Assembly: GCA_018652595.1 (NCBI GenBank)
Contig: JABIBU010000022.1
Location: 50,346 to 114,345, forward strand
Source: Candidatus Magasanikiibacteriota bacterium
GTDB lineage: Bacteria > Patescibacteriota > Patescibacteriia > Magasanikbacterales > UBA922
DNA: 64,000 bases
Direction of reading: 5' to 3'
Shown here: positions 8,569 to 55,841 of the stretch, piece by piece
Layout of the letters: every line of letters begins with the position of its first letter
How positions within the stretch are numbered: the first letter of the stretch is position 1
Position numbers and translations under genes: made by a program
Notes under the pieces: generated by a model
What the model was told of the DNA's origin: nothing
The model's input: the letters and a program-made list of their open reading frames with translations, nothing else
Database searches by the model: none

Positions 8569-8709
8569 TATTTTTATAAAAATTATTTAAATGAAGAACC
8601 CCGCACATCATCTTGCCGAAGCAATAGACGTACGGGGCTCGAAAACCAGTAAGGCACCGACCAAGAATCTAGATGACCAGTGGGTCAATAGATCCGAGAT
8701 ACAAGTATC

Positions 8710-9261
8710 CTACTTAGAGCAGGGAAGCAAGTCGATCTTCCGCCAAACGTTGATGAGTAGACGGAAGTACAGCTTCCAGCAACCACCCTCATAACAGAGG
8801 GAGGCTATGTTGGGGCTCCTCCTCTCATCCAGGAAAATGGTACCAGACAAAATGATGTACTTCCTGTCTCTCAACTCCTCCGGGATGTCGGCCTGCTCAG
8901 CAAGAAAACGTACCGCATCTGAAAGACCAAAGTTGGCCTTGAGCGCAACAGCACGCTCACGCATTTCCGGTCCCTGGATCGAATTCTTGTCCCCGTCAAA
9001 ACAGGGGACAAATTTCAAATCCTCAACCTTAATACGTCTCGGAAGAACGTCTTCCACAACCTCCCAACCCGTCGGGATAAGCTCCGGACAGAGAATCTCT
9101 GCCGGAAAAAAAGTTTTGCCTGCCTGCTTTCCATCCAGAAAAGCCTGCAAACCTTCGCGGTTAACCCGCTCGGACCGAATTTGGTCCCCCAACTCCAACA
9201 ATTGCTCCAATGTTACCTTGCTCACGACACTCTCCTCACCCATAGGTAGACAACTAAGCAC
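8710..9261 (-). CDS. Orphan small protein in higher-GC islet A (track start is GTG at 9261; ATG MGEESVV at 9243)
   Basis: About 50% GC coding segment in about 33% GC surroundings; AGGTGA upstream of the GTG start; no family recognised. Confidence 0.45.
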   Translation of the reverse strand: MLSCLPMGEESVVSKVTLEQLLELGDQIRSERVNREGLQAFLDGKQAGKTFFPAEILCPELIPTGWEVVEDVLPRRIKVEDLKFVPCFDGDKNSIQGPEMRERAVALKANFGLSDAVRFLAEQADIPEELRDRKYIILSGTIFLDERRSPNIASLCYEGGCWKLYFRLLINVWRKIDLLPCSK

Positions 9262-9422
9262 TGAGCATCACCTGATGCACAATACCATAGCTGATACGCC
9301 TACAAGCAAAATAGCCAGGAACCACTCCCAGCCAAATTTCTATCTTTTTGGCTAAAATAAGATAAAAATTTGACTAGGATTTAATGACGTATAACTAATT
9401 TTATAAAGAACTTATAATATAT

Positions 9423-11561
9423 TTATAACACATTTAGGTGGTTTTGTCTATACTTAAAATACTCATCAATAGCGCCGTCAACAAGTCGCACAGCCAGACC
9501 AATATAATCCTCTGGATGTAATACTGTCAAAATTTCTTGTTTAACTACATCTTCCACATCTAGACCTGTTACAAACCTACGCAAATCTTCTAGAGTCACC
9601 TGCTTGCCACGTGATTCTTTTTTTACTATTTCATAAGCATCAATTCGACCATATTTTCTGAGGATTGTCTGTATTGCTTCAGTTATTATTTGTGGATTAT
9701 TATTAATTTCTTCGCGAGCAAATTCCACATTAGGACGGATAAGATCAAAAGCAATTTGTAAGTGTTTCAGAGCTACATATACATAACCAATAGCCTCACC
9801 ATAAGACTTTTCCAAATCATGATCAGACAAATCACGCTGTAAACGAGATACATCTAGCTCAGATGAAAAGACATTGAATAATGCGTTGGCTTTTTTTATA
9901 TTACCCTCTGCCACCTCAGCAAACCAAGGATTTATTTTGTGTGGCATTACAGACGAACCCACGTGGCTCTCCACCTTTGTAAAATACATTGTACCAAAAC
10001 CAGCATAGAGCGACATGTCTACAGCAATATCGCGAAGTACATTACCAACTTCTTGCACTGCTTGTAGTTTGGAAATCATATCCACATGTGTCCCCCGCTG
10101 ATCAGTCCAAAGTTCACACTCTAAATTTAAACGCTTGGTTAATTCTTTTGAATATTTTATCCAATCCAAATCTGGATAAGCCGATACAAAACTATTATAA
10201 TTCCCAACTGCTCCATTTATTTTTCCAGTCAATTTTACTGATTGCATTTTTTGCAAACCATTAGTTAGTCTAACTAAATAATTGGCAAATACCTTACCAA
10301 AAGTAGTCGGGCTCGCGGGCTGTACATGAGTCCTGGCCAAAAGTGGATTGTTTTTATATTTTTCAGACAAACTTTTCAACACTTCAGTTGTTTCCAATAC
10401 ACTTGGAACAAATAATTCACTCATTCCGTCATTCAGCATCATTTTGTAGGCCAAATTATTAATATCAGCCGAAGTCGTAAACATATGTACAAAACTGGCA
10501 ACATCTGATAGACTCGTGTTTTCCATTTTTTCTTTTATCCAAAGCTCGCATGCTTTCATGTCATGTTCAACAGGACCAACACCATTTCTACCCAAGTGAT
10601 CATACTGCAAAACTTCGTAAGCTGAACTTTCGGAAAAATTATCTGCCAAATCTTTTAACCATTCCTTTTCTTTTGGTGTAAATAATCTCACTACTTGCCC
10701 ATCAAAAAAATCAGATAAGCAGAGTAGATGTTCTATTTCGGCTTTTACACGATACTTGTGCAGTGCATACTCAGAAAAATAGTGGCGAAGTGGTGCGGTC
10801 ATTTCTCCATGTCGCCCATCCAAGGCTGAAGTACTTTGCAAAGATTTTTTATAACGATCTACTTTTATTACTTCTTCTAAAATATTTTCTATGTTTTCCA
10901 AATTCTTTACAATCAAAGCATCTTCAATACCCATCTCATGAAAATCTTCTCTAGTCGTTTGCCCTTGGCAAACCCCAACAAATTTTATTTTTTGATAAAA
11001 ACTGGAATAATAATCATCACTGTGATCACCAAACATTACAGTCTGTTCTGGCTTGATACCAATATTTTCTAAATGTTTAATAGCTTCTTCAAAAGCTCTT
11101 GGGTGTGGCTTTCTAAATTCCAGCTCAGGCGGAATATGCATAAAAGCAAAATCATCAATATCAAAACCAGCCTGAGCCAGTCTCTCTGACAACATTCTCA
11201 CTCTGTTCGTCACCAACCCAACGACTAAACCAGCCTGCTTTAGACTCTTTATTGCTTCTAGAGATCCAGAAGTAGGATCATACTTTTCACTTGGAGAGTG
11301 CTCTCTATAATTTCCCAAAACTACTTCCCACAATTCCTGTCCATTGCTAACACCAAGGAATAATTCCTTAAAAATATCTTCAAATGGCAAATTCTTTGCT
11401 TGAATCCGATAAATATCGTCTTTTGTTGGCTTAGATACAGAAAAACCACCCTTAATAAGGCGGTCTACAGTTTTTGTAATATTTTTTACCACAAAATCAT
11501 TAGAGGCAATCAAAGTATTGTCTACATCAAATATAACTGCTTTTATTTCTTTGTCTATCAT
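9423..11561 (-). CDS. purB: Fusion protein: N-terminal HAD-superfamily phosphatase domain + adenylosuccinate lyase
   Basis: FDVDNTL HAD motif I with a HAD core in the first ~230 aa; C-terminal TAPLRHYFSEYAL..., LARTHVQPASPTTFGK, GKINGAVGNYN, SSVMPHKINP, SRLQRDLSD collinear with E. coli PurB. Confidence 0.85.
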   Translation of the reverse strand: MIDKEIKAVIFDVDNTLIASNDFVVKNITKTVDRLIKGGFSVSKPTKDDIYRIQAKNLPFEDIFKELFLGVSNGQELWEVVLGNYREHSPSEKYDPTSGSLEAIKSLKQAGLVVGLVTNRVRMLSERLAQAGFDIDDFAFMHIPPELEFRKPHPRAFEEAIKHLENIGIKPEQTVMFGDHSDDYYSSFYQKIKFVGVCQGQTTREDFHEMGIEDALIVKNLENIENILEEVIKVDRYKKSLQSTSALDGRHGEMTAPLRHYFSEYALHKYRVKAEIEHLLCLSDFFDGQVVRLFTPKEKEWLKDLADNFSESSAYEVLQYDHLGRNGVGPVEHDMKACELWIKEKMENTSLSDVASFVHMFTTSADINNLAYKMMLNDGMSELFVPSVLETTEVLKSLSEKYKNNPLLARTHVQPASPTTFGKVFANYLVRLTNGLQKMQSVKLTGKINGAVGNYNSFVSAYPDLDWIKYSKELTKRLNLECELWTDQRGTHVDMISKLQAVQEVGNVLRDIAVDMSLYAGFGTMYFTKVESHVGSSVMPHKINPWFAEVAEGNIKKANALFNVFSSELDVSRLQRDLSDHDLEKSYGEAIGYVYVALKHLQIAFDLIRPNVEFAREEINNNPQIITEAIQTILRKYGRIDAYEIVKKESRGKQVTLEDLRRFVTGLDVEDVVKQEILTVLHPEDYIGLAVRLVDGAIDEYFKYRQNHLNVL

Positions 11562-11692
11562 AAATTTATCTAATCAGCCACTCCTTTCTTTTAAATCACC
11601 AATACTCGTCCTGCGTAGCCGTAGGCGAAGCACGGATCCCTCCTGCCTAAGGTATATTAGACTATCATGCCAATATAGTCAAGAAAAGCTAA

Positions 11693-11722
11693 GGCCGTCG
11701 ATTCCGAGGAACCGACGGCCAG
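11693..11722 (-). terminator. Hairpin GGCCGTCG-loop-CGACGGCC downstream of the islet B gene
   Basis: 8-bp GC-rich perfect stem; weak T-run. Confidence 0.4.
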
Positions 11723-11749: not shown

Positions 11750-12070
11750 CTACTCCTCGAAGACGAAGTTCGCCATAAGGAGAGCCTCGCGAACCACACG
11801 AAGAACAACTTTAAAAACATCGTTTGACAAGTCATCCTCCTTTTGAGCCATGGCACGCGTCTCTTCCAAGATTGCTGGAGCGTCATTGTAGATGACAACG
11901 GTCATCGAGTCCATCACCTGTAGAACCGTGAACCCCGCCGCTACCAGGCTTGTTGGTAAACCATGTTCGTTGAGATGCATCTCGAGACGCAAACGCATCT
12001 CGCCCACATCCTCAGGAAATCTGGAAACTAATATGCCGATCTCTTCACGAAGCTCTTTAATTGTGCTCAT
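11750..12070 (-). CDS. Orphan small protein in higher-GC islet B (106 aa)
   Basis: GC-rich ORF; GGAGGAG SD 6 nt upstream of the ATG; TTGACA-N17-TATGAT promoter upstream. Confidence 0.5.
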   Translation of the reverse strand: MSTIKELREEIGILVSRFPEDVGEMRLRLEMHLNEHGLPTSLVAAGFTVLQVMDSMTVVIYNDAPAILEETRAMAQKEDDLSNDVFKVVLRVVREALLMANFVFEE

Positions 12071-12282
12071 TGCATTCTCCTCCGAAATGAACGTTATATT
12101 ATGCCAAAATCATAACATAGAAAAACTAGACTGTCAACATACCCAAATATCCACAAAATACCTCTTGCGCTAATCTAAAAAAACTGATAAAATATGGAAG
12201 ATATGAAGAATAAATATATACAAAAAGAAGGTCGTTTCAAATTGCCAGCCGAGGCAGACCAATTCATTTATTTCTAATAATT

Positions 12283-12310: not shown

Positions 12311-13282
12311 ATGCAAGATTGGAATTTAAAAAATAAATTTTTAACAGCTGTAAATACTAACGGTGGATTTGTAAATTGCCATGGACATTTTGATAAAGCC
12401 TTTTTTATCAGTCCAGAGAAATTAGATAATTCTATGCTTGACATGCAAGCTAAGTGGCAATTGAGTGATGATACAAAAAGAAATAGTTCAATTGATGAAA
12501 TAGCTGATAGAATTAGATGTGCTCTTGATATTATGATTGATCAAGGTGTAAAAACAACTCTAAGTTTTATAGATGCTTACTCAGCTGTCGGACAAAAAGC
12601 AGTAATAGCTGCCAATCAAGTTAAACAAGAGTATAAATATAAAATAAATTTTTTAATCGCCCCTCAGCCAATAGGCGGATTACTAGACCCCGAAGAAAGA
12701 AAAATATTTGAACTGGCAGCTAGTAAATCTGACATAGTCGGAGGTCTACCCTCACGAGATCGTCCTTACATACAAAAAAGTTTTGATATTCTTTTTTCTA
12801 TTGCAAAAAAACTAGACAAACCAATACACGTCCACATTGACCAAGAAAATAATCCAGATGAAAGAGACACTGAAACACTGATTTATTATACAAAAAAATA
12901 TGGCTATGAAGGCAGAGTAGTTGCAATTCATGCTGTATCAACTACCACACAACCAAAAAAATATAGAAAGCACTTGTACAAGAAAATGGCAGAACTCAAA
13001 ATAAGTGTGGTTGTTTGCCCGTCAGCAGCGCTTAGCATGAAACCAACAAATAATAAATTATCACCTATTCGTAATTCAATTGCTCCAATTTCAGAAATGA
13101 TAGAAGCTGGAATTACTGTTGGACTAGGCGTAGACAATATATATGATTTTTACCAGCCTTTTGTAGACGGGGATCTATGGTTTGAGACTAGAATGTTGAT
13201 GGAAGCTACTCGCTTTTATGATTTTGAAAAAGTTTTAAAAATTGTAACTGAAAATGGAAAAAAAATATTAAATATTAAATAA
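12311..13282 (+). CDS. Amidohydrolase-superfamily enzyme, cytosine deaminase (CodA)-like, lacking the N-terminal beta-sandwich domain (track start is GTG at 12302)
   Basis: HGHFD metal motif; HIDQENNPDERDTETL...AIHAVS aligns with CodA HCDEIDDEQSRFVETV...ASHTTA; GLGVDNIYDFYQP aligns with CodA GHDDVFDPWYP. Confidence 0.65.
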   Translation: MQDWNLKNKFLTAVNTNGGFVNCHGHFDKAFFISPEKLDNSMLDMQAKWQLSDDTKRNSSIDEIADRIRCALDIMIDQGVKTTLSFIDAYSAVGQKAVIAANQVKQEYKYKINFLIAPQPIGGLLDPEERKIFELAASKSDIVGGLPSRDRPYIQKSFDILFSIAKKLDKPIHVHIDQENNPDERDTETLIYYTKKYGYEGRVVAIHAVSTTTQPKKYRKHLYKKMAELKISVVVCPSAALSMKPTNNKLSPIRNSIAPISEMIEAGITVGLGVDNIYDFYQPFVDGDLWFETRMLMEATRFYDFEKVLKIVTENGKKILNIK

Positions 13283-13301
13283 TATAATTATTAAATAAAA
13301 T

Positions 13302-14939
13302 ATGGAACAAGACAAAAATACATATGCCCATATCGCCTCATATGAGCCAAAAAACAAAGAAGAGGTAAAAAAAGTAGTATTATTATATTCCGGTGGATTA
13401 GATACTTCGGTAATGCTCAAATGGATTAAAGATTTTTATGAAGCAGAAGTAATTGCTCTGTGTATTGATATTGGACAGCAGGTAGATGATTTGGATGCAA
13501 TAAAACAAAAAGCATTGGATTTGGGAGCAATAAAATCAATTGTCATTGACGCAAAAGACGAATTTGCTGATAAATACATCTCTCGTGGCATAAAAGCCAA
13601 TGGTCATTATCAGGGTGACTACAACTTAAGCACCCCAATAGGCAGACCACTCTTAGCAAAATTGGCTGTCCAGGTGGCCATGGAAGAAAAAGCCGACACT
13701 ATTGCTCATGGCTGTACTGGCAAGGGCAATGATCAAGTCAGAATTGAAGGTACTGTAGTTACCTTGAACCCAGATTTAAAAGTTATTGCCCCAGTAAGAG
13801 AATGGGGGATGGGTCGTGATGAGGAAATTGAATATGCCAAAAAGCATAATATTCCTATCCCCCACACAATTGACAAATCATATTCGTCTGACGACAATAT
13901 GTGGGGAGTAACCAGCGAAGGTGGTGAAATAGAAAATCCAGAACTTGTCCCACCAATGAAAAAAATTCTTCAGGTCTGCACACATCCGGCTGACGCACCA
14001 GACGAAGAAGAGTTGGTTGAAATTGAATTTGTCAAAGGTATTCCCACAGCTCTCAATAACGAGGAAATGAAATTAAGCGAACTTATTATAAAATTGAACA
14101 AGTTGTCCGGCAGACACGGTATTGGTATTGCCCACCATATTGAAGATCGAATCGTAGGTCTAAAAGTTAGAGGCATTTATGAACAACCGGCTGCTCACAC
14201 AATTATAAAAGCTCACAAAGAATTGGAAAAATACGTTTGCACTCGACACGAAAATAAATTCAAAGAATTAGTTGATCAGGAATGGGCATATCTTTGTTAC
14301 GGTGCTTTGTGGTTTGAACCGTTGATGAAAGATCTGTCAGGTTTTATAGACACCATGAATGAAAAGGTGAACGGAAAAGTAACTCTGCGCCTATTCAAGG
14401 GCCACTGCGACACAGTTGCACTAAAAACTCCAGACGCTCTATTTGACGAAAAACTAGCCACATTCATGAAGGATGACCTATTCAATCAAAATGCATCATC
14501 GGGCTTTATTGAACTATGGACCTTGCAAATGAAGATGGCAAAACAAAGCAAAAAGAATGTTCTACTTACTATAGGCGGACAAGAAAACAAAGAAGGTCTT
14601 CTCCCAGAAATAAAAGCACTTGAAAAATTGAATTGTGTGCTGTATGCTACCGAACATACGAGTGAATTCTTGGATAAGCACGGAGTCAAAAATCGGATGG
14701 TTTATAAGATATCCAATGGCGATTCTGAAAAAAGACCTAATATAGCAACACTACTAAGAGAAAGAAGATTTGATCTTATCATAAATATTCCCTCAGCCGA
14801 AAGAAACTTTACAACCGACACAGATGGTGAAAAAATTCGTGAATTAAGCATAAAAAGCAACGTGCCTTTGGTAACAAATATAGACGTTGCCAAACATACT
14901 ATCACTCAATTGCAAGATGTAATAGAAAACAAAATGTAA
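13302..14939 (+). CDS. argG: Argininosuccinate synthase fused to a C-terminal CarB-type MGS-like (allosteric) domain
   Basis: LYSGGLDTSV PP-loop, GCTGKGNDQVR, RGIYEQPAAHTII collinear with human-type ArgG; last ~130 aa (ATEHTSEFLDKHGV...RRFDLIINIPSA...) aligns to the CarB C-terminal MGS-like domain. Confidence 0.8.
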   Translation: MEQDKNTYAHIASYEPKNKEEVKKVVLLYSGGLDTSVMLKWIKDFYEAEVIALCIDIGQQVDDLDAIKQKALDLGAIKSIVIDAKDEFADKYISRGIKANGHYQGDYNLSTPIGRPLLAKLAVQVAMEEKADTIAHGCTGKGNDQVRIEGTVVTLNPDLKVIAPVREWGMGRDEEIEYAKKHNIPIPHTIDKSYSSDDNMWGVTSEGGEIENPELVPPMKKILQVCTHPADAPDEEELVEIEFVKGIPTALNNEEMKLSELIIKLNKLSGRHGIGIAHHIEDRIVGLKVRGIYEQPAAHTIIKAHKELEKYVCTRHENKFKELVDQEWAYLCYGALWFEPLMKDLSGFIDTMNEKVNGKVTLRLFKGHCDTVALKTPDALFDEKLATFMKDDLFNQNASSGFIELWTLQMKMAKQSKKNVLLTIGGQENKEGLLPEIKALEKLNCVLYATEHTSEFLDKHGVKNRMVYKISNGDSEKRPNIATLLRERRFDLIINIPSAERNFTTDTDGEKIRELSIKSNVPLVTNIDVAKHTITQLQDVIENKM

Positions 14940-15861: not shown

Positions 15862-16698
15862 ATGGAAAATAATAATCCACAATTTATTCCGATATCAAAA
15901 ATAGTTGAAGAAGCCCAAGATATTAAAACTTTTTATTTTGAACATAGTTTAAATTCCAAACCAGGACAATTTATAATGCTTTGGGTACCAGAGCATGACC
16001 AGAAGCCATTTTCTATTGCGTATGATGATGGTAAATCTTTTGGTCTAACTTTTTTCAAACGTGGCCCAACCACGACAAAACTTTTTGATATGAAAGTTGG
16101 TGAAAGAGTTGGGATTGAAGGTCCGTTTGGCACGAGCTTTTCTCGTAAACCCGATACTCACTACATCATGGTCGCTGGAGGTTATGGTGCGGCACCGTTG
16201 GGGTTCTTGGCAGAATCGCTTTTGTCTCCCCCTGCCGGAGGGGGAGATGCCCGCAGGGCAGAGGGGGTGGGAGTAGACTTCTGTGTTGGTGCTAGAAATA
16301 AAGATTTAGTTTTATTTAAAAACAGAATAGAAAAAATTCCAAATACAAAACTTCATATCGCGACAGACGACGGTAGCGAAGGACATAAAGGATACATCAC
16401 TGATATATTATCAAACTTAATTGATAGCGCTGAAAAAAAAGTATTAGTTGTCACTTGTGGTCCAGAACTTATGGAAAAAAAGATTTTGAATATCTGTAAT
16501 GAAAAAAATACCGATTGCGAAATAAGCATTGAGAGATATATGAAATGTGGAGTTGGTATTTGCGGACAGTGCGCAGTTGACCCAATTGGAATTTGCATGT
16601 GTAAAGAAGGTCCAGTAGTAAAACGCGAACTGGCCAATAAAATAACTGAGTTTGGAAAATACCATCGCGATAAAAGTGGAAAAATTATTTATTTTTAA
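15862..16698 (+). CDS. pyrK: Dihydroorotate dehydrogenase electron-transfer subunit with a GC-rich in-frame insertion
   Basis: FAD/NAD-binding fold, C-terminal 2Fe-2S Cys cluster CGVGICGQCAV, adjacent to pyrD. Confidence 0.85.
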   Translation: MENNNPQFIPISKIVEEAQDIKTFYFEHSLNSKPGQFIMLWVPEHDQKPFSIAYDDGKSFGLTFFKRGPTTTKLFDMKVGERVGIEGPFGTSFSRKPDTHYIMVAGGYGAAPLGFLAESLLSPPAGGGDARRAEGVGVDFCVGARNKDLVLFKNRIEKIPNTKLHIATDDGSEGHKGYITDILSNLIDSAEKKVLVVTCGPELMEKKILNICNEKNTDCEISIERYMKCGVGICGQCAVDPIGICMCKEGPVVKRELANKITEFGKYHRDKSGKIIYF

Positions 16699-21795: not shown

Positions 21796-22206
21796 CTAAC
21801 TCCTCGAAAACAGACTCACCACCTTTGCGGGTGGCTGGTCCGTCTTCCCGTTGTTTGTTGTAGAGGGTCCGCACCCCCGAAGGAACGACACACTGGTTAA
21901 ATCCTCGCCCTTTTTATACCACTCTTCCACGGTAAAGACGAGGGCAAAATCCCCAACATGATCTGGGAAACGACTTCGTGGAGTGGTTATATCTAGATAT
22001 ACCAACTCCAAGAGAGTCACTTTTTGCCCCAGATAAACAAAGGAGGGGTCTTGTCTTATTGCTGACTCGACCCACTTTTTCACATCTGCTTCACTGGGAA
22101 CATGACCATCTCCTGCCTCAAACAGGAGTTGCAACAGAGGACCATCCCGATCCTCACATGTTTTTTGATACCCCCAACTTTGGAGGTGTTCCAAGATTGC
22201 GCTCAT
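21796..22206 (-). CDS. Orphan small protein in higher-GC islet C (136 aa)
   Basis: About 50% GC; perfect AAGGAGGTG SD 8 nt before the ATG; TTGACA-N17-TATATT promoter. Confidence 0.55.
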   Translation of the reverse strand: MSAILEHLQSWGYQKTCEDRDGPLLQLLFEAGDGHVPSEADVKKWVESAIRQDPSFVYLGQKVTLLELVYLDITTPRSRFPDHVGDFALVFTVEEWYKKGEDLTSVSFLRGCGPSTTNNGKTDQPPAKVVSLFSRS

Positions 22207-22235
22207 AGCACACCTCCTTGATTTTGGGGAACATT

Positions 22236-22311
22236 ATAATATAGCGCACTTTCTTGGCTTTGTCAAGCCAAAAACTTGACAAAACTGTGGAAAAGTGCTA
22301 TACTATAGCAT
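22236..22311. promoter_or_regulatory. Divergent sigma70-like promoters with overlapping palindromic -35 region (TTTGTCAAG-N7-CTTGACAAA)
   Basis: Plus: TTGACA(22276-81)-N17-TATACT(22299-304). Minus: TTGACA(rc 22261-66)-N17-TATATT(rc 22238-43). Confidence 0.6.
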
Positions 22312-33216: not shown

Positions 33217-33540
33217 AAATTAAGAATTATATTTAACCTGTTGGTGACGAAACCAGACAAGCTTCCCGATTAATTCGGGATTAATAAGTGGGGAGATTAT
33301 ACAATATTACAAAAAAAATGTCAACCCCGCACCATTTTCACTAAGTTTTACCTTGATAAAAGTGTTGGGGGGGGCAAGAGTGACGTTTTTCTGTTGAATT
33401 CATTCCCAAAGAGGAATGTCCTGTGGGTATTAGAAACTAGGGTGGTAGGGTACTCATTTTGAACTCGTGGACGACCCTACCAGGAAGACTAGCTTCCGAG
33501 GAAAGAATTCGTCCATGAGTTGGACTATGGTGGGGGGGTG

Positions 33541-34083
33541 CTAGTCGTGAGGAATGATCCCCTCGCACTTCTCCATATTGGGGTTAAGTAGCATCTGAAG
33601 ATCCTCCTGAATGAAGAACCTGTAGGCCTCCCGACCATTGGTTAGGGTGCGAACAGGCTGGTTGTCGTACCATTTGCCCCGAGGAACTAGGACGCAGCCC
33701 CTGCCCCCAATCGGCTTCATCTCGAAACCGACGTCCTGGGTGTTACCGGTCTTGAGGACCAATACCCTTGCTAGGACATGTGTGTCCCCGCAGTTCTCCG
33801 GCATGGAGAAAGCGTAATAGGTAGAGGTCTCATCAACGAGCCTCAGCTCCTCCCCGTAGGAGAATGAACTAAGAAGGGTAGTCTCCCTAATCTCGAGCAT
33901 GCTGACCGGTACGGCCATCACACTAGGAGGTGAAACCGAAAAGTCTACTGTAATGACTCCGCCCCACATGGTCTCCGCCTTGGTAATCACCTGCTCAAGA
34001 GAGCTTGTTTTGCCTTGGGCCAAGGGAGTAGAAACAATAAAACAACTAAACATAACCACTACGAGAAGGTGCCAGATCTTCAT
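33541..34083 (-). CDS. Orphan secreted protein in higher-GC islet D (180 aa)
   Basis: Signal peptide MKIWHLLVVVMFSCFIVSTPLAQG; AAGGAGGGAG SD; perfect consensus promoter upstream. Confidence 0.55.
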   Translation of the reverse strand: MKIWHLLVVVMFSCFIVSTPLAQGKTSSLEQVITKAETMWGGVITVDFSVSPPSVMAVPVSMLEIRETTLLSSFSYGEELRLVDETSTYYAFSMPENCGDTHVLARVLVLKTGNTQDVGFEMKPIGGRGCVLVPRGKWYDNQPVRTLTNGREAYRFFIQEDLQMLLNPNMEKCEGIIPHD

Positions 34084-34159
34084 AACTCCCTCCTTATAGG
34101 GGTTAAAAAACTAAAATAGAGTACCCACCTTAATTTCTAATATAAATTTTAAAGAACCC

Positions 34160-34200
34160 CAACAATGGATTATAGTCTGTTTTAGGGCTTTTGTCAAGCC
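34160..34200 (-). promoter_or_regulatory. Perfect sigma70 consensus promoter TTGACA-N17-TATAAT for the islet D gene
   Basis: rc of 34191-96 = TTGACA; rc of 34168-73 = TATAAT; 17-nt spacer; embedded in GGGCTTTTGTCAAGCCC. Confidence 0.65.
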
Positions 34201-39112: not shown

Positions 39113-39543
39113 CTAAAGCTTGAGTTTGCCAAAGTGAATACGCAAAACGGTAGAGAAATCTGCCACGCTACAAGAGCGCGGAGGTGTCTTAGGGTCTGTA
39201 TCGACATCTTCCAGACGATAGTTGATGACACCATCGCTGATGGCATAACCAGACCAACTCAAAACATGTCTAGGGTCATCCCCCTTATTAACCCAGACGA
39301 AATCTTCTCCCTCAAACGTTCCTCTCTTCATCAATACGACCTCTTCTTGAATTTCTGCGGAAACCACCTTCTCAAACAAGAAGAAAGCTGTCCGATAGGA
39401 ACATCAGATTCACCACGACCCTCAACAAACACTCGCACCACGACCCCTCCAGGAAGCAGTGCGGAAATAATCTTGGCCCGATGAACTATGTCATCAGGAG
39501 TCATCCAATGTTCCACATAAACACGGGCGCTCTGTTGCATCAT
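39113..39543 (-). pseudogene. Higher-GC islet E: small orphan gene split by a frameshift (two overlapping ORFs 39331-39543 and 39113-39379)
   Basis: Two overlapping protein-like frames joined at a CTT-CTT-rich run; TTGACT-N17-TATTAT promoter just downstream of the tsf terminator. Confidence 0.45.
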
Positions 39544-39607
39544 ACCCCCAAAAAAACATATTGAAGTTCATCTTCCACAATCTAATAATAGCAACTTTCT
39601 TCGTGTA

Positions 39608-43969: not shown

Positions 43970-46900
43970 CTAACTACACCCCAAACTATCCCCACAATTC
44001 AAACACTTATAGCAAGTACCATTCCTAACGGTAACATGTCCACAAGTAGGACAAGCAGGAGCATCGCCCATCATCTCTGACAAGGCTGCGCTACTAGCAT
44101 CTTGTATAGCCTCTTCTTTTTCCATGGTTGGCAATGTGGCCTGATCCTGAACTTCACTAACTTCTACTTCTTCCTTTTTTTCTGGCAAATCCATCGTTTC
44201 TTGTGGAGCTGTGGTCTCTGCTAGTTTGGCAAGATTTTCGAATTTCTTTTTTTGAATTCCTTTTGGAAGAACTTGCACATAGTCTGTCCGTCCGAGATAC
44301 TCCATTCCCAAAACTTTGAAAACAAAATCTATTACAGAGGTGCAGCTCTTGATATTGGGATGATCTGTAAATCCACTAGGTTCAAACCTAGTAAACAAAA
44401 AGTTTTCTACATACTTTTCTAGTGGCACACCATATTGCAGCCCCATAGAAACAGAGATTGCAAACATATTTAGTGTACTTCTAAATCCAGCGCCTTCCTT
44501 GTACATGTCAATAAAGATTTCTGCTAGGCGTCCGTCTGGATATTCGCCAGTTCTAAGCCAAATTTGCTGAGTACCAATTTTGGCAGAGACGGTGATACCA
44601 CCACGCTTTGCTGGAACTTTTCTTTTTTCTCCGTGCAAATAAACTCTTCTCTCGGCCACCTCACCATCTTTACTGTATGATTCCATTGGTGTTTGAATCC
44701 CGACATGTTGACTCAAAATCTCACTAGCCTGTCTAATTGCGTCATCTTCATCATTTGTTTCCACCATTCTAGATACCTGAATTACTTCTTCTTTTTTTAC
44801 TACAACCTCTTCTTTTAGCTCTACCTTATCTTCTACCTCTTCTTTATCTTCATCACCTTTATTTTTTGAAGAAGTTGAGAGTGGTTGGCTCAATTTACAA
44901 CCATCACGATAAATTGCAACTGCCTTTAGAGCTAATTTCCAAGACTGTTCATAAGTATATTTTACATCTTCTAGGGTTGCCTCATTTGGCATATTAATAG
45001 TTTTGGAAATTGCACCGGACAAAAATGGTTGGACAGAAGCCATCATATTCACGTGGCCCATAAAGTGGATAAATCTTTCGCCTTTTTTACCATTTTTATT
45101 TGCAGTATCAAATACTGGGTAGTGCTCTTCTTTCAAATGTGGCGCACCCTCAACTGTCATAGATCCGCAAACATATTGGTTGGCCTCCTCGATCTGCTCT
45201 TCTGTATAACCCATGGCTTTTAGCATATTAAAGTCAGGGGCATTATATTCTTCTGTCTTAAATCCAACTCGTTTCATACAATCTTCTCCCAAAGTCCAAA
45301 CATTGAAAGCAAACTTAATTTCAAAAGCACCTTTTAGAGCTTTATTTAGACTAACAATATCTCCATCGTTAAATCCTTTGGCTTTCAAGCTCTCTGCGCT
45401 AACATGTGGAGAACTTGTTATGTCAGCCGTACCTTTGGCGTAGTCTAAAATACCCCCTATCTCCTCATCGCTGTATTCTAGATTTTCTAGCGCCAATGGC
45501 ATTGCTTCGTTTGCAATACGAAAGTATCCGCCACCTGCCAATTTTTTAAACTTTACTAGTGCAAAATCTGGCTCTACTCCTGTAGTCGCACAGTCCATAA
45601 GTAAACCAATTGTTCCAGTTGGTGCAAGTAGTGTAGTCTGAGCATTGCGATACCCATACTTTTCACCCATAGACAGAGCATCATTCCAAGATTCACGAGT
45701 AGCAGCTAGTAAATAGGCAGGAGCATGCTGAGGATCAATACCAACTGGCATCACTGTCAATTTTTCATACTCACTATTATCAGCATTGAACGCTGCTCTA
45801 CGATGATTACGCATTACTCGAAGCATATCTTCGCGATTGTATTCAAACTTTGGAAATGGACCAAGCAATCTAGACATCTCAGCACTGGTCTTGTAAGACT
45901 CGGCTGTCATAAGAGATGTAATAGAACCAGCAAAAGCACAGGCTTCTTCTGACTCATAAGGAATGCCATTCATCATAAGCACAGAACCAAGGTTGGCATA
46001 GCCAAGACCTAGTGTTCTAAAATCATAACTACCTTGAGCAATTTCTTCACTTGGGAATTGCGCCATGAGAATACTAACTTCTAAAACAGTAGTGACGAGT
46101 CTAGTAGCATGTTTGAACTGTTCTATTTCAAAATTTCTATTTTTTACATCAAAAAACTTGAGCAAATTGAAAGATGCCAAATTACATGCGGTGTCATCCA
46201 AAAACATATATTCGCTACATGGATTGGAAGCATTGATTCTGCCTGACTGAGGACAAGTATGCCAGTCGTTGATAGTACCATCAAACTGAATACCTGGATC
46301 AGCACAAGCCCAAGCTGCATAAGAAACTCTTTCCCACAGGTCTTTGGCTTTCATTTTTTTACAAGTACTACCGTCAGTTCGCCAAGTAAGATTCCAAGAA
46401 CCATCATTTTTTACTGATTCCATAAACTTATGTGGCACACGGACAGAGTTGTTGGAGTTTTGACCAGAAACTGTTTGGTATGCTTCCCCCTCATAGTCTG
46501 ATGCATAACCAGCGGCAATCAGAGCTGCGACTTTTTTTTCTTCTTTTACTTTCCACCCTACAAATTCTTCAATATCAGGATGGTCCATGTCGAGCACAAC
46601 CATTTTTGCCGCACGTCTGGTAGTACCACCGGATTTTATAGCTCCGGCGGCTCTATCGCCAATTTTGAGCCAACTCATAAGCCCTGATGATTGACCACCA
46701 CCCGACAGTGACTCACCAGATCCACGAAGTCCTGAAAAATTAGTGCCCGTACCAGAGCCGTATTTGAAAAGACGCGCTTCCCTAACCCACAAATCCATAA
46801 TACCACCTTCGTTTACCAAATCGTCTTTGATAGATTGTATGAAACAAGCATGTGGTTGAGGATGAGTATAAGCATCTTTGGCTTTTGTCATGACTCCGGT

Positions 46901-47479
46901 GTCAGGATCTACATAATGGTGACCTTGGGGACTACTGTTGATGCCGTAAGCCCAATTGAGTCCAGTATTAAACCACTGCGGAGAATTTGGCGCCACCATC
47001 TGTTTGAGATGCATTACCACCAACTCATCATAAAAAATCTCTGCATCCTCTGCACTAGCAAAGTAGCCATATTTTTCTCCCCAATAACGCCAAGTACCCA
47101 CTAGACGATGAATGGTTTGTTTGGTGCTAGTCTCGGGTCCAAGCACGGGCGACCCATCCACTTTTAATTTTGGGTTACCTCTATCATCATATTGGGGCAC
47201 ACCTGTTTTTCTAAAATATTTTTGAGCAATAATATCAGTTGCCACTTGCGACCACTCTTTTGGGATCTCAATATCTTTCATTTCAAACACAACTGTACCA
47301 TCTGGCTCACGAATGATAGATAATCGCTTTTCATACTCCACTGAATCATATGGACTTTGTCCTTCTTTGCTAAAAACACGCTTAAAACGTAGGCCATTTT
47401 CAGTATTATACTTGAAGTTTGTATCTGTCTCTTGGCCAAGATGTAAATCTTGAATCAATTTGGAATCAGTCGGCCCCAT
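43970..47479 (-). CDS. nrdJ: Class II adenosylcobalamin-dependent ribonucleotide reductase (long monomeric/dimeric NrdJ type)
   Basis: FKRVFSKEGQSPYDSVEYEKR N-terminus, SNPCSE active-site motif, C-terminal CPTCG...CYKCLNCG zinc ribbon; 1169 aa, no intein motifs seen. Confidence 0.88.
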   Translation of the reverse strand: MGPTDSKLIQDLHLGQETDTNFKYNTENGLRFKRVFSKEGQSPYDSVEYEKRLSIIREPDGTVVFEMKDIEIPKEWSQVATDIIAQKYFRKTGVPQYDDRGNPKLKVDGSPVLGPETSTKQTIHRLVGTWRYWGEKYGYFASAEDAEIFYDELVVMHLKQMVAPNSPQWFNTGLNWAYGINSSPQGHHYVDPDTGVMTKAKDAYTHPQPHACFIQSIKDDLVNEGGIMDLWVREARLFKYGSGTGTNFSGLRGSGESLSGGGQSSGLMSWLKIGDRAAGAIKSGGTTRRAAKMVVLDMDHPDIEEFVGWKVKEEKKVAALIAAGYASDYEGEAYQTVSGQNSNNSVRVPHKFMESVKNDGSWNLTWRTDGSTCKKMKAKDLWERVSYAAWACADPGIQFDGTINDWHTCPQSGRINASNPCSEYMFLDDTACNLASFNLLKFFDVKNRNFEIEQFKHATRLVTTVLEVSILMAQFPSEEIAQGSYDFRTLGLGYANLGSVLMMNGIPYESEEACAFAGSITSLMTAESYKTSAEMSRLLGPFPKFEYNREDMLRVMRNHRRAAFNADNSEYEKLTVMPVGIDPQHAPAYLLAATRESWNDALSMGEKYGYRNAQTTLLAPTGTIGLLMDCATTGVEPDFALVKFKKLAGGGYFRIANEAMPLALENLEYSDEEIGGILDYAKGTADITSSPHVSAESLKAKGFNDGDIVSLNKALKGAFEIKFAFNVWTLGEDCMKRVGFKTEEYNAPDFNMLKAMGYTEEQIEEANQYVCGSMTVEGAPHLKEEHYPVFDTANKNGKKGERFIHFMGHVNMMASVQPFLSGAISKTINMPNEATLEDVKYTYEQSWKLALKAVAIYRDGCKLSQPLSTSSKNKGDEDKEEVEDKVELKEEVVVKKEEVIQVSRMVETNDEDDAIRQASEILSQHVGIQTPMESYSKDGEVAERRVYLHGEKRKVPAKRGGITVSAKIGTQQIWLRTGEYPDGRLAEIFIDMYKEGAGFRSTLNMFAISVSMGLQYGVPLEKYVENFLFTRFEPSGFTDHPNIKSCTSVIDFVFKVLGMEYLGRTDYVQVLPKGIQKKKFENLAKLAETTAPQETMDLPEKKEEVEVSEVQDQATLPTMEKEEAIQDASSAALSEMMGDAPACPTCGHVTVRNGTCYKCLNCGDSLGCS

Positions 47480-50747: not shown

Positions 50748-50892
50748 CATATTTTTATATTTTAATGTAAAGCCCAATTATAGTAACATACCATCAATAT
50801 TTTGACAACAATAAAACTACCCACTCCTACTTCTAATCCAAAAAGATTGAACCAAAAGTAGTTTCGGGTAGCCTCATTATAAATTCCCTCCG

Positions 50893-51189
50893 CTACCTTT
50901 TTCTCCCAAACAACCGAGAGAAAAACCCACCCTCATCGCCCTCGTCGGGTTGTTCTAAATTGTACTTGCAATCTCCAGCATCTTTTTTTGGGCAAGCAGT
51001 GGTCATGCGAGACAGCTCGGCGGGCCTGGTGCCCTTTTTGCAATTACTGCATACTCCAAAAACATCACACCTACTGCCCCTAGCAATGACATGGCATTCT
51101 ACTACTTTGAATACCTGTGAGGAATTGCATTTGGGACACACTGTCTTAAATTCTCTAGCCCCAACTTGGGACTTCTTGTCTTCTGGCAT
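50893..51189 (-). CDS. Cys-rich zinc-ribbon small protein in higher-GC islet G (start MPEDKK; track ORF extends through the A8G8 tract to 51237)
   Basis: CPKC...CH...C...CSNC...C...C..C spacing; about 47% GC. Confidence 0.5.
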   Translation of the reverse strand: MPEDKKSQVGAREFKTVCPKCNSSQVFKVVECHVIARGSRCDVFGVCSNCKKGTRPAELSRMTTACPKKDAGDCKYNLEQPDEGDEGGFFSRLFGRKR

Positions 51190-51509
51190 ATCCCCCCCCT
51201 TTTTTTTGTGCGAGTAATTATATATACAGTAAAACATGTATTATACAAAAAGTCAACACAAAGCAAAAACCCGCCTTAACAGACGAGTTTTGCCATACAG
51301 TATTTGGGCACCTTCAGTATTTCTGAATTAAACCCACGATTATTATACACTATTTGCAAAAATCATGCAAAATAGCTGTGGATTACTCTGAAACAGAGTA
51401 ACCTTGAGCTGGATAAAATCCAACATTAGAGACATTATACAAGAGATGTGTTTTTTTGTCAACAGAGTTGACAATGTTGATAATTTAATGTAAAATAATG
51501 TTCAGTTAT

Positions 51510-51830: not shown

Positions 51831-51918
51831 TACATTTTTTACCATACACTACTTTACAAAATCATACACATATGGTAACTTTATGTTATCTACCACAACA
51901 AACCTGAAGAGGGAAGAT

Positions 51919-52128
51919 ATGCCATGGAACAGAGAATTACCACTTACAGTGGGAACAAAGGTACTCCGTGATGTCAACGGAAAAACAGGAACAATAAAGA
52001 AGTTGGTCAGGAAGAAAGATGGGAGCATCACCAGAATTGTAATATTGATGGACGGAATGAGGATAGATCTAAATTTCCGTAGCGTCGCCTTTATGGCAGA
52101 CTTCTCGATAGCCCCCGAAAAAGTATAG
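51919..52128 (+). CDS. Small hypothetical protein, moderately GC-enriched (islet H; start MPWNREL)
   Basis: GAAGAGGGAAG SD-like motif upstream; 69 aa. Confidence 0.4.
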   Translation: MPWNRELPLTVGTKVLRDVNGKTGTIKKLVRKKDGSITRIVILMDGMRIDLNFRSVAFMADFSIAPEKV

Positions 52129-52168
52129 TGCCCCAACCTCTCTCGCATGCTTATACATTGTGCGGTAG

Positions 52169-53384: not shown

Positions 53385-53385
53385 C

Positions 53386-53418
53386 GACGAAAAAACTTCC
53401 TTAAATAGGAAGTTTTTT
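53386..53418 (+). terminator. Rho-independent terminator after the tRNA cluster
   Basis: aacttcc-ttaaata-ggaagtt + T5. Confidence 0.75.
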
Positions 53419-53440
53419 ATTTGTTCTAAAATTTAAAATC

Positions 53441-55141: not shown

Positions 55142-55259
55142 AATCTTATTTTAACACTTATATATTTTTATACCTGAATTATAGCACAAAATTAGTGTTT
55201 TGTCTTTTTTGAAAAATAAAAAAACAGCTGTTAGCTGCTAATAATTATATAAGTCATCT

Positions 55260-55288
55260 CCAACCGGCGCACTATGTGCGCCGGTTGG
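55260..55288. repeat. Perfect GC-rich palindrome CCAACCGGCGCAC-TAT-GTGCGCCGGTTGG
   Basis: 13-bp arms, 3-nt loop; about 70% GC in a 33% GC genome. Confidence 0.85.
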
Positions 55289-55450
55289 AGCCTCCGCAAG
55301 CCCGTGGTTCCTCAATCCACGAACTCTTCCTCGTCGCTCTTGGTGAGGTGCGCCGGGATTCCTCCTTGCGCCGCCACACAACAATTGACGGGGTGCTCAC
55401 GCGCCCTTCGATCATCATCACTCTCTCGAGTGTCGACACCTTGATTACCG

Positions 55451-55774
55451 TTATCCTGAGTCATCTACTTCCTCCATTTCTGTTTCGACCACCCAGACCT
55501 CCTGGGTTGCCGTTGATTCCTTTTCATTACGAACCATGCGTCGCCCGAGCCCCCAACAAAAAATCGGAATCCAACTCTCGGCGAACTCCTGCGGGCAACG
55601 CGCTGAAAAGGTCCAAGCATGATCGCCCGGAACTTTCACTTCGACCCAGTCAACAGTGCCATCATCCTTCACCGCACCACGGCGAAATAGATTGACACGA
55701 CCATTCTGGGTACTACGCACTACCCTACGAACCCCCATGGCTCGATGAGCAATAAAAAACTGGATACGATCCAT
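55451..55774 (-). CDS. Orphan small protein in higher-GC islet F (107 aa), followed by an overlapping ~50-aa acidic ORF (about 55311-55464, minus strand)
   Basis: AAGGGGGG SD; TTGACG-N17-TATATA promoter; downstream ORF MTQDNGNQGVDTRESDDDRRAREHPVNCCVAAQGGIPAHLTKSDEEEFVD starts 13 nt before the upstream stop. Confidence 0.45.
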   Translation of the reverse strand: MDRIQFFIAHRAMGVRRVVRSTQNGRVNLFRRGAVKDDGTVDWVEVKVPGDHAWTFSARCPQEFAESWIPIFCWGLGRRMVRNEKESTATQEVWVVETEMEEVDDSG

Positions 55775-55841
55775 ATACCCCCCTTAAAAACGTAAAAAAA
55801 GAAAAGCTCTTATTTATATATACCATAATAAAGCAAAGCCG

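Follow-up and report, generated by a model that had tools for sequence, protein, structure and literature searches.

We favour, with moderate confidence, the explanation that eight short segments (islets I1 to I8) in a 64-kb window of a Magasanikbacteria (CPR/Patescibacteria) genome, this window being the whole stretch of DNA analysed, are moron-like accessory cassettes which came from a GC-richer, SD-using origin and are partly ameliorated. The segments had been singled out in a preliminary description, whose observations proved largely real and were partly confirmed, while its interpretation was partly supported. Each islet would be an independent, self-contained transcription unit with promoter, SD, one or two small ORFs and terminator, set singly in a spacer among conserved, syntenic, AT-rich housekeeping genes like morons in phage genomes. 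The data support a distinct class of small self-contained cassettes among SD-less housekeeping genes.

The GC content of the window is 38.6%, with 48.1% inside the eight segments and 37.9% outside them. The background is thus 38% and not 33% as described earlier, and the 1-kb flanks of the segments range from 33 to 40%. The islets are flanked by housekeeping genes such as purA/purB, rpsA, tsf/ruvA and efp. I8, I4, I1, I2, I3 and I5 correspond to the top six non-overlapping 500-nt GC windows in the 64 kb, the seventh being a tRNA cluster. The I6 segment (50890-51240) is moderately GC-rich (45.6%, reached by 5.7% of the windows of equal length), and the I7 segment (51900-52130; 42.9%) is marginal as a GC islet, because 19% of such windows match it. 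At third codon positions nine islet ORFs have a GC content (GC3) of 0.45-0.65, compared to 0.20-0.38 in 44 host genes, with zero overlap (Mann-Whitney p = 1.4e-6). The proportion of adenine at sense-strand third positions (A3) is 0.10-0.18 in I1, I2, I4, I5a, I5b and I8 and 0.30-0.36 in host genes; I7 is not adenine-poor. As had been stated, there is a small ORF in each segment, mostly on the minus strand (only I7 is on the plus strand), but I5 and I8 hold two.

An SD was called when the energy of the duplex with the anti-SD was <= -6 kcal/mol. It is present in eight of nine islet ORFs and in two of 44 host genes (Fisher p = 4e-7), and the GC3 and SD contrasts together bear out the view that these genes look foreign in their composition and in their signals for translation. 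The housekeeping genes named previously are indeed SD-less, with one correction: the gene at 55842-59561 encodes an LTD/PKD/OB-fold surface protein which has kept a poly-G SD although its composition is host-like, and nrdJ is located at 43970-47479. In eight related loci, the GC3 of SD-led genes averages 0.13 above the locus median. Consensus sigma-70 promoters were also found, perfect in I4 (TTGACA-17-TATAAT) and with a score of 11/12 in I2 and I3, but they are not specific for islets, since equally good ones are found ahead of rpsA and a tRNA operon (both perfect) and of rpsB, ftsH and gene 22342. Near I6, a perfect promoter at 51434-51462 precedes a conserved candidate sRNA and not I6, and a promoter scan gave nothing convincing for I1. 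An own promoter is clear for I2, I3, I4 and I8, and a terminator for I2 and I8.

I1 (8710..9225, minus strand) encodes 171 aa from the GTG at 9225, or 177 aa from the ATG at 9243, and has the SD GAGGAGAG at 9230-9237 (minus strand). Its GC-rich, structured 3' tail (8590..8709, minus strand), read directly from the sequence, contains nested hairpins including a TTGC-TTCG-GCAA stem-loop and no supported ORF; it lies upstream of a bidirectional terminator (8544-8574) detected by a terminator scan. None of the islet ORFs matched a family in Pfam, PHROGs, NCBIfam or PADLOC, as anticipated, but small protein families were found for I2, I4 and I7, and I1 has >300 homologues, every named one being from CPR, so that not all ORFs are orphans. 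I1 belongs to a family of DGR-type variable proteins that is restricted to CPR. The homologue P0031, which is ~47% identical to I1 across the C-terminal 130 aa, has a VR in its last 124 nt and a paired TR beside bAvd and RT. In the DGR target of this family, 18 of the 19 TR-VR mismatches fall on TR adenines; one family member is the target of an active DGR. The AF2 model of I1 (pLDDT 91) shows a weak predicted resemblance to C-type-lectin folds.

I2 (11750..12070, minus strand; 106 aa, GC3 0.56) encodes a small protein predicted to be helical. On the same strand it has the SD GGAGGAGAA (12075-12083), a TTGACA-17-TATGAT promoter with a TG extension (12109-12137) and an intrinsic terminator with a 12-bp stem (11693..11720). 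The GC-rich sequence downstream of this terminator (11565-11690) corresponds to the promoter and 5' leader of purB and lies outside I2. The syntenic orthologue P0035 in L076 (50% identity, dN/dS 0.18) is GC-rich and SD-led, and the SD and promoter of I2 are kept there. I3 (21796..22206, minus strand; 136 aa, GC3 0.49) matched only itself in homology searches and is a true orphan confined to this population. Its ORF length, the SD AAGGAGG (22213-22219) and the promoter TTGACA-17-TATATT (22238-22266), both on the minus strand, suggest that it is coding. The latter overlaps the palindrome GGCTTGACAAAGCC (22256-22269, exact), which recurs with two mismatches at I4 (34187-34200). A motif common to two islets exists as reported, but in the L074 orthologue of I4 the arms of the palindrome are not kept.

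I4 (33541..34083, minus strand; 180 aa) has a signal peptide and conserved cysteines and represents a secreted or lipoprotein family; its AF2 model has a pLDDT of 81, and no structural relative was found. The SD AAGGAGGGAG (34086-34095) and the perfect promoter (34169-34197), both on the minus strand, are identical in L074, and the 5' UTR of ~75 nt is conserved. The interval from the stop codon of I4 to the promoter of rpsA holds a long, conserved hairpin (33441..33519, minus strand; 23-bp consensus stem), with 97-100% identity to L074 as compared to ~62% for the I4 coding sequence. It had no match in Rfam, and it is either a 3' stabiliser or terminator of I4 or a separate small RNA.

According to their gene arrangement, I5 and I8 appear to be translationally coupled two-gene units, all features of which are on the minus strand. 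I5a (39331..39543, 70 aa) is preceded by the poly-G SD GGGGG (39545-39549), and its stop codon overlaps the start codon (TGATG) of I5b (39113..39331, 72 aa; SD AAGAAGAGG at 39340-39348). The recorded protein P0021 is identical to I5b over all 72 aa. The corresponding site of L074 also holds two coupled ORFs, with a weak orthologue of I5a (30% identity, E = 0.011) and no detectable similarity to I5b. I8a (55451..55774, 107 aa; SD AAGGGGGG at 55778-55785) has an orthologue in L062 (54% identity, dN/dS 0.18), where the TTGACG-17-TATATA promoter (about 55810-55840) is conserved. The start of I8b (55312..55464, 50 aa, acidic; SD GGAGGAAG at 55468-55475) overlaps the end of I8a. We regard I8b as a candidate ORF on the basis of its position and of an analogous SD-led ORF of ~58 aa in L062 rather than of sequence similarity. 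The I8 terminator hairpin (55252..55286), which was read directly and has a perfect 15-bp stem, is retained in L062 despite altered sequence. I6 (50893..51189, minus strand; 98 aa) encodes a Cys-rich, zinc-ribbon-like protein and has a poly-G SD within 51191-51207; its orthologues in L063 (66% identity, dN/dS 0.29) and L068 (34% identity) both have the SD AAGGAGGG. The weakest islet is I7 (51919..52128, plus strand; 69 aa, GC 43%, GC3 0.49), with the SD-like GAGGGAAG and an orthologue in L063 (50% identity, dN/dS 0.52) preceded by a GGGGGAG SD.

The islet ORFs are genuine coding genes, because there are syntenic orthologues with dN/dS values of 0.14-0.52 (five pairs; 0.04-0.09 for flanking genes) and AlphaFold gives confident models for I1 and I4. 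A coding signal is thus present in relatives; like the absence of SDs from housekeeping genes, this leaves the earlier interpretation unrefuted. When compared with one another, the islet proteins showed no similarity and are mutually unrelated, and the term "family-like" does not apply, the shared palindrome not being conserved either. In L007, L001 and L002 the order pyrC-purB-purA-guaB is kept with spacers of 13-275 bp and neither I1 nor I2, while L076 has I2 and lacks I1. The I8 cassette is absent from L063 and L064, and I6 from L062; other spacers of the relatives hold different GC-rich, SD-led orphan genes. The islets diverge 3-4 times faster than neighbouring genes. They evolve under purifying selection, with gain or loss between close relatives. 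The syntenic positions of the I2, I4, I6, I7 and I8 orthologues imply vertical inheritance across species-level divergence.

How, then, could such genes have arisen? To the preliminary description they looked horizontally acquired or otherwise distinct; horizontal acquisition goes too far as a finding, given the syntenic copies of five islets in relatives and the lack of a link to a donor or phage (no donor was found in our search, and IMG/VR gave no match). We nevertheless infer a foreign origin: the GC-rich, adenine-poor synonymous sites and the SD are most likely the trace of a GC-richer, SD-using source pool, made up probably of other CPR lineages or of mobile elements that they carry. After arrival the genes would have undergone slow, strand-asymmetric amelioration via C-to-T change. 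The SD may have been kept because GC-rich, structured mRNA needs it, whereas core mRNAs would start on unstructured, AT-rich leaders. For amelioration speaks the GC3 gradient in the I1 family (0.80, 0.76, 0.75, 0.60, 0.60 and 0.43), the SD being lost in the member with the lowest, nearly host-like value, the L081 paralogue. Compared to its L080 homologue, I4 has lost C and gained T at third positions, with A and G unchanged. Among polarised third-position changes in I4, 20 are GC-to-AT and 4 the opposite, although the outgroup composition biases this test, as seen with a housekeeping control. Besides the lack of a donor, several observations speak against this explanation. By a rough relaxation argument, GC3 ~0.6 in the I2, I4 and I8 pairs would require an ancestral GC3 of ~0.9 or a GC-maintaining force, and the L078 DGR target, with 61% GC beside RT and Avd genes of 30-34%, is not easily accounted for by co-acquisition and neutral decay. 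Nor did the islet boundaries show inverted repeats, target-site duplications or an integrase.

Such a force is at the centre of a competing explanation, which we consider clearly less probable but serious: GC-rich, adenine-poor coding and the SD could be actively maintained, making the accessory genes a separate expression class. Possible reasons would be mRNA stability, SD- or condition-dependent translation (comparable to that of SD-led rpsU in the Bacteroidia, which avoid SDs) or avoidance of adenine by targets of DGRs. In line with this, both members of the I2, I4 and I8 pairs have GC3 ~0.6 and A3 ~0.1 at pS ~0.71, which is near saturation, and orthologues keep the SD motifs next to spacer sequence that diverges. 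Further, GC3 is above that of the own host in I1 and all six of its sampled homologues (hosts with 30-50% GC), and in I4 and its two; and the GC-rich L078 target has A3 of 0.00 in the VR and 0.07-0.12 in the remainder. However, the L081 paralogue shows that this state is not obligatory, GC3 within a family forms a continuum with polarised changes mainly from GC to AT, and I7 is not adenine-poor. Moreover, saturation of synonymous sites is incomplete, because fourfold-degenerate sites still hold ancestral signal.

It is improbable that all or most islets are DGR targets or were inserted by retroelements, with adenine loss and fast evolution as by-products of adenine-specific mutagenic retrohoming. 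The active DGR target in the I1 family, the low A3 of six ORFs and the enrichment of DGRs in CPR (PMC8144416) would agree with it. The clade 2 targets of CPR DGRs have no recognisable domains and probably novel C-type-lectin folds (PMC8144416), and I1, as a P0031 homologue with a weakly lectin-like model, resembles them. But homology to a DGR target is confined to I1, this comparison does not extend to the other seven islets, and the 64-kb window contains neither RT nor Avd, nor a TR-like repeat for any islet. Divergence runs along whole genes instead of being confined to the C-terminal VR, and the available population copies are essentially identical. The adenine missing from third positions is replaced mostly by G, not by equal shares of the three other bases, and T, too, is depleted in distant homologues.

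Even less probable, and largely refuted, is that a single mobile system (a transposon family, for example, or prophage morons or integron cassettes) carries the islets as cargo, which would make them a true element family: the moron-like anatomy, the atypical composition and the tRNA genes adjoining I6 and I7 would suit it, but the housekeeping flanks are in conserved order, there are no PHROG matches, IMG/VR relatives, integrase or transposase, no repeats or attC-like sites are common to the islets, and the I3/I4 palindrome is not conserved. The least probable proposal, that the islets are structured non-coding RNA genes with chance ORFs in GC-rich sequence, starts from the fact that many GC-rich islands of AT-rich genomes turn out to be RNA genes and from the strongly conserved structured elements beside I4 and I6, but is refuted for I1, I2, I4, I6, I7 and I8: pN is far below pS, orthologues preserve the ORF lengths, the codon-position GC pattern is of the coding type, the AF2 models are confident, I1 has hundreds of protein homologues, and tRNAs are the sole Rfam matches at gathering score.

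The accessory-cassette explanation can be compared to known systems. In work by Hendrix and Juhala on lambdoid phages, morons are reportedly promoter-gene-terminator units with deviant base composition between conserved genes. Like these, the islets are small genes with own promoter and terminator and deviant composition, inserted where insert-free relatives keep the gene order, and patchy in close relatives. Unlike them, they reside in a cellular housekeeping chromosome instead of a prophage, searches gave no homologues from phages, and vertical inheritance across species-level divergence applies to several of them. They share short length, lineage restriction, fast evolution, atypical composition and patchiness with ORFans and taxonomically restricted HGT islets. 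In bacteria, ORFans and foreign genes have mostly been described as AT-richer than the host, whereas the islets are GC-richer and SD-led in an SD-less core and, unlike HGT genomic islets, have no mobility genes and no known donor. I5 and I8 resemble type II toxin-antitoxin or toxin-immunity pairs in that two small ORFs share one promoter, stop and start codons overlap and divergence is very fast, but they had no toxin, antitoxin or defence match in Pfam, NCBIfam or PADLOC. Toxin/immunity or effector roles are guesses from this coupling and from the I4 signal peptide.

Bacteroidia translate independently of SD, with a sequestered anti-SD and an SD-led rpsU. For their SD-independent translation, references are cited in PMC9723584. 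In the genome studied here, too, core genes are SD-less with A/T-rich leaders and a small minority has strong SDs conserved in orthologues, but the phylum is another one, and the SD-led genes are accessory and GC-rich, with no ribosomal-protein autoregulatory circuit. The eight islets together would constitute a lineage-specific accessory gene pool of this Candidatus Magasanikbacteria genome. They are part of the flexible gene pool of the organism and not a new kind of genetic element.

The proteins encoded in the window have exact copies in four Candidatus Magasanikbacteria (CPR/Patescibacteria) MAGs, on 16-21 contigs. A Pfam scan of the large ORFs revealed ordinary housekeeping content: purA, a HAD-purB fusion, a pyrC-like amidohydrolase, a miaB-like gene, rpsA, Lactamase_B, ruvA, tsf, efp, thrS, a type IV pilus ATPase, ruvB, recA, a Na/H exchanger and a class II ribonucleotide reductase (43970-47479). 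The last is the nrdJ-type reductase, while the region 55842-59561, previously taken for nrdJ, encodes an LTD/PKD/OB-fold surface protein instead. The window contains seven tRNA genes, and at the Rfam gathering score no family besides tRNAs was detected in it.

The overall GC content is 38.6%. Together, the segments of the eight islets (I1 to I8, of which I5 and I8 are two-ORF units) have 48.1% GC compared to 37.9% in the rest of the window, so that their higher GC content stands, although the background of about 33% assumed in the preliminary description was too low, the enrichment of I6 is moderate and that of I7 is marginal, because its GC content is matched or exceeded by 19% of the windows of the same length. 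The six non-overlapping 500-nt windows with the highest GC content in the 64 kb correspond to I8, I4, I1, I2, I3 and I5, followed by a tRNA cluster in seventh place. At the third codon position the separation is complete, the nine islet ORFs ranging in GC3 from 0.45 to 0.65 and the 44 host genes used for comparison from 0.20 to 0.38 (zero overlap, p = 1.4e-6). The codon-position pattern of the islet ORFs (GC1 > GC2, high GC3) is of the type seen in coding sequences.

The leaders of the host genes are A/T-rich and without a Shine-Dalgarno (SD) site. Of the nine islet ORFs, eight reach a duplex energy of -6 kcal/mol and so have an SD by this cut-off, compared to two of the 44 host genes (p = 4e-7), which bears out the proposed contrast in initiation signals between islets and housekeeping genes. 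The SD of I1 is GAGGAGAG, ahead of a GTG start at 9225 which agrees with the start of its homologues. The SDs of I2, I3 and I4 are GGAGGAGAA, AAGGAGG and AAGGAGGGAG, respectively; I5a has GGGGG, I5b AAGAAGAGG, I6 a poly-G stretch and I8a AAGGGGGG, and the motif before the start of I7 is GAGGGAAG. One of only two genes with host composition and an SD-like site is the LTD/PKD/OB-fold surface protein gene (55842-59561, minus strand, 1239 aa), which has GGGGG; in the relatives L063 and L070 this gene is preceded by AGGAGG or AAGGAGG. According to the third-position skews, G and T prevail on the minus strand of the window, with G3 > C3 and T3 >= A3 in the host genes encoded there and the opposite in plus-strand genes. 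Therefore, the minus strand is probably the leading strand. It carries eight of the nine islet ORFs. Another local GC peak (0.55, at about 16001-16400) lies within the pyrK-like gene (15862-16698, plus strand), which has 65% identity to its orthologue in the related locus L076 compared to 86-91% for the neighbouring genes.

The islets had been considered family-like. All-against-all blastp and blastn comparisons gave chance matches only, which rules out a single protein or DNA family, and neither a 25-nt match between I1 and I4 nor the palindrome is a conserved feature. The motif said to be shared by two islets does exist, since GGCTTGACAAAGCC occurs twice in the window, but its arms are not kept in the I4 orthologue and it is therefore taken as a -35 box within a chance palindrome. 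The islet proteins had no matches in Pfam, PHROGs, NCBIfam and PADLOC, and no defence systems were found. The concatenated islet proteins were compared exhaustively by phmmer to 1.84 billion representatives. More than 300 homologues were obtained for I1, six for I4, and one each for I2 and I7. Among the best 150 matches, those listed, I3, I5a, I5b, I6 and I8 match only themselves, and weak matches to I3, I5, I6 and I8 may rank below these; according to a separate search, I3 is a true orphan. Syntenic orthologues were found in related genomes for I4 (L074, between Lactamase_B and rpsA, 55% identity), I2 (L076, between the pyr genes and purB, 50%), I8 (L062, 54%), and I6 and I7 (L063, at the same chromosomal sites, 66% and 50%), in loci whose flanking housekeeping proteins are 78-93% identical. 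The small ORFs do show a coding signal: ORF lengths are kept between these orthologues, and dN/dS (Nei-Gojobori) is 0.18 for I2, 0.14 for I4, 0.29 for I6, 0.52 for I7 and 0.18 for I8, compared to 0.04-0.09 for neighbour genes, with a dN three to four times that of the core. Thus, as judged from these substitution patterns, these islet ORFs are protein-coding genes under purifying selection. The AlphaFold2 models are confident for I1 (pLDDT 91) and I4 (pLDDT 81). Structured non-coding RNA in place of coding islets was rejected, because the Rfam gathering score is reached by tRNAs alone and pN of the ORFs is far below pS; E-value Rfam scans of the I4 and I6 flanks gave nothing credible.

At least 11 of the 12 consensus promoter positions are matched at 14 sites in the window. 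I2, I3 and I4 have one such promoter each (that of I4 is perfect), but rpsA (perfect, 33296-33324), a tRNA operon (perfect), rpsB, ftsH and gene 22342 are equally served, so that consensus sigma70 promoters are not a feature of the islets. No convincing promoter was found for I1. Further, the perfect promoter at 51434-51462 does not belong to I6. It precedes a conserved structured element of approximately 170 nt with a terminator, a candidate sRNA (51262-51430, minus strand) between a tRNA operon and I6. This element, which follows a TTGACA-17-TATAAT promoter, contains four hairpins and ends in an intrinsic terminator (fold z = -5.4). L062, L063 and L068 have it at 88-97% identity, and this includes L062, where I6 is missing. 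It belongs to no Rfam family, the best weak match being the rnk leader (E = 0.003). Downstream of the I4 stop codon and ahead of the perfect rpsA promoter follows a second element, a hairpin of approximately 80 nt with a 23-bp stem (33441-33519, minus strand). Its identity to L074 is 97-100%, compared to approximately 62% for the adjacent I4 coding sequence, and it has no match in Rfam. It may act as a 3' stabiliser of an mRNA or be an sRNA of its own. For the 321-nt spacer as a whole, the fold z is -4.3. Finally, the region 11565-11690 (minus strand), assigned before to the second islet, is the purB promoter (TTGACT-17-TAATAT, 11654-11682) with a GC-rich 5' leader of approximately 90 nt. The leader, for which no Rfam match was found, might be a regulatory structure.

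The presence of the islets varies. In the more distant loci L001, L002 and L007, the order pyrC-purB-purA-guaB is kept with spacers of 13-275 bp which contain neither I1 nor I2. Even close relatives, whose housekeeping DNA is approximately 80-84% identical, differ: L076 has no I1, L062 no I6, and L063 and L064 no I8; the junction at the empty I8 site is marked only by the microhomology GAC. The islets thus combine an unusual composition with a scattered occurrence in close relatives, as horizontally acquired islets do, while neither a donor nor mobility machinery was detected: the named homologues, which are of the I1 family, are all from CPR, and there is no integrase. Scans against PHROGs and IMG/VR did not reveal a link to phages. 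The islets resemble phage morons in having their own promoters (I2, I3, I4 and I8) and terminators (I2 and I8) and a deviant composition, but not in a prophage setting, since they are flanked by purA, purB, the miaB-like gene, rpsA, tsf, ruvA, efp, tRNAs and the Na/H exchanger gene, and a prophage location was rejected. Cassette swapping between conserved flanks was rejected for I4, because, apart from the hairpin element and the promoters, its flanks do not as a rule exceed the coding sequence in conservation. Integron gene cassettes do not fit islets scattered over 47 kb with own promoters, no shared repeat and no neighbouring integrase.

Other spacers of the relatives L062 and L063 hold further GC-rich, SD-led orphan genes, which are Pfam-negative. 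According to independent gene calls in eight related loci, SD-led genes are on average 0.13 higher in GC3 than the locus median. Thus, the window shows a property that is general in the clade, namely an AT-rich, SD-less core next to GC-rich, SD-led flexible genes.

Several single genes of the relatives deserve mention. Spacers that are empty in the window hold larger insertions in L062 (6121-9378), L063 (16725-18723) and L074 (12382-13860). Among their contents are a 223-aa gene of L062 (61.5% GC, GC3 0.80) with a histidine-phosphatase-like motif and no Pfam match, a gene for a 199-aa signal-peptide protein of L063, and an SD-led gene whose 492-aa product matches Sigma70_r4 weakly. In L071, from another CPR genome whose other genes have approximately 43-52% GC, His_Phos_1, an I1 homologue, purD and purN (6789-8585 and 12716-14794) have 59-63% GC, and SD-like sites precede the first three of them and not purN. 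GC-rich genes are therefore not confined to small orphans. The purB gene of the window (9423-11561, minus strand) encodes a 712-aa HAD-hydrolase/adenylosuccinate-lyase fusion common to L001-L011. Although L076 is otherwise a close relative, its purB (8340-9689) is unfused (449 aa, 36% identity) and inverted in orientation, as if this core gene had been replaced by a xenologue.

All named members of the I1 family are from Magasanikbacteria, Parcubacteria or unclassified Patescibacteria. I1 is 47% identical over 134 aa to P0031, a protein encoded in L078, where the 3' end of the P0031 gene is repeated downstream over 124 nt, ahead of bAvd and reverse transcriptase (RT) genes. The two copies of the repeat (variable repeat, VR, at 8439-8562 and template repeat, TR, at 8907-9030) differ at 19 positions, and 18 of these mismatches are at adenines of the downstream copy, the TR. 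This adenine bias is the signature of an active diversity-generating retroelement (DGR). The target gene has 61% GC, with an A3 of 0.00 in the VR, while its own RT and bAvd genes have 30-34% GC. The DGR of this Magasanikbacteria MAG (L078, 8001-10464) is complete and apparently active, with RelB/ParE and PemK toxin-antitoxin genes nearby. CPR are rich in DGRs with targets devoid of recognisable domains (PMC8144416). I1 alone among the islets is homologous to a protein with a TR-paired C-terminal VR and mismatches at TR adenines, but it differs from DGR variable proteins in that its locus is without TR, RT and Avd in the window: no TR-like repeat of any islet was found there, and tblastn with the L078 RT gave no match.

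At the level of gene organization, I5 is best read from its sequence as two coupled genes. I5a and I5b overlap at TGATG, a 72-aa product is on record, and at the same site L074 has a coupled, SD-led, GC-rich gene pair, with a trace of similarity for I5a only. Given the record of the product and the identical layout in L074, a frameshifted pseudogene was rejected. Likewise, the end of I8a overlaps the start of I8b, a second SD-led ORF of 50 aa with a counterpart in L062. In their two small overlapping ORFs with SD-led second ORFs, a layout repeated in L074 and L062, I5 and I8 resemble type II toxin-antitoxin systems; no toxin or antitoxin homology was found for I5a, I5b and I8a in Pfam, NCBIfam and PADLOC. 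I6 is Cys-rich and zinc-ribbon-like.

Why the islets are GC-rich and SD-led was addressed by fourfold-degenerate-site identity, by the joint GC state of sites in orthologues and by polarising substitutions, tests limited by small numbers, incomplete saturation and outgroup bias. With modest confidence we favour a foreign origin with incomplete amelioration over maintenance by selection. The islets would then be foreign genes whose GC-rich composition was only partly ameliorated. In line with this, GC3 in the I1 family is graded (0.80, 0.76, 0.75, 0.60, 0.60 and 0.43), and the member with 0.43 has no SD; the LTD/PKD gene has kept its SD at a host-like composition; and polarised third-position changes in I4 are 20 from GC to AT and four in the reverse direction, in small numbers and with outgroup bias. 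Compared to its L080 homologue (GC3 = 0.80), I4 of the window has lost C3 and gained T3 with unchanged G3 and A3, a shift which looks like one-strand C-to-T decay.

Alternatively, GC-richness and SD could be maintained by selection, which we consider rather unlikely. This explanation draws on the observation that I2, I4 and I8 have a GC3 of approximately 0.6 and an A3 of approximately 0.1 in both members of each orthologous pair while synonymous sites are near saturation (pS about 0.71), a state that, by a rough relaxation argument, would need an ancestral GC3 near 0.9. In addition, the SD motifs are conserved between orthologues, every sampled member of the I1, I2 and I4 families is GC-richer than its own host genome, and the L078 target gene with its 61% GC lies beside its own AT-richer RT and Avd genes. 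It is tempting to speculate, improbable as we consider it, that there is a two-tier expression code in this CPR lineage and perhaps in CPR more widely, with an AT-rich, SD-less core and a GC-rich, adenine-poor, SD-dependent accessory set kept by selection. The latter would comprise fast-evolving surface, secreted and DGR-linked genes, its state persisting through near-saturating synonymous divergence. If true, composition and SD would be the mark of mRNAs that form a class under regulation or special protection, and not of recent foreign DNA.

The feature, which had been regarded as the best candidate for something undescribed, is real but is not an undescribed genetic element: the islets are accessory gene cassettes of moron-like type without mutual relationship, and one is in a DGR-target family. 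Unusual are the direction of the bias (GC-richer than the host) and the clean split between core and accessory genes in initiation signals, both persisting across species-level divergence; in the literature we found no description of an SD-less core versus SD-led, GC-rich accessory genes in CPR.

Small hypothetical genes abound in CPR/Patescibacteria genomes and are hard to rank. In this window, GC3 and SD are two simple signals which cleanly part a flexible, fast-evolving pool, including a relative of DGR variable proteins, a lipoprotein family and coupled gene pairs, from the conserved core. The genes of this pool are the likeliest candidates for a part in contacts with host cells or phages. 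They offer a test case for the time over which a reduced, AT-rich genome retains a foreign composition, and for whether organisms that avoid SD sites still use them for a special subset of genes. Last but not least, if the GC-richness is selected and not donor-derived, this would be an unusual bacterial example of codon and initiation signals specific to a gene class.
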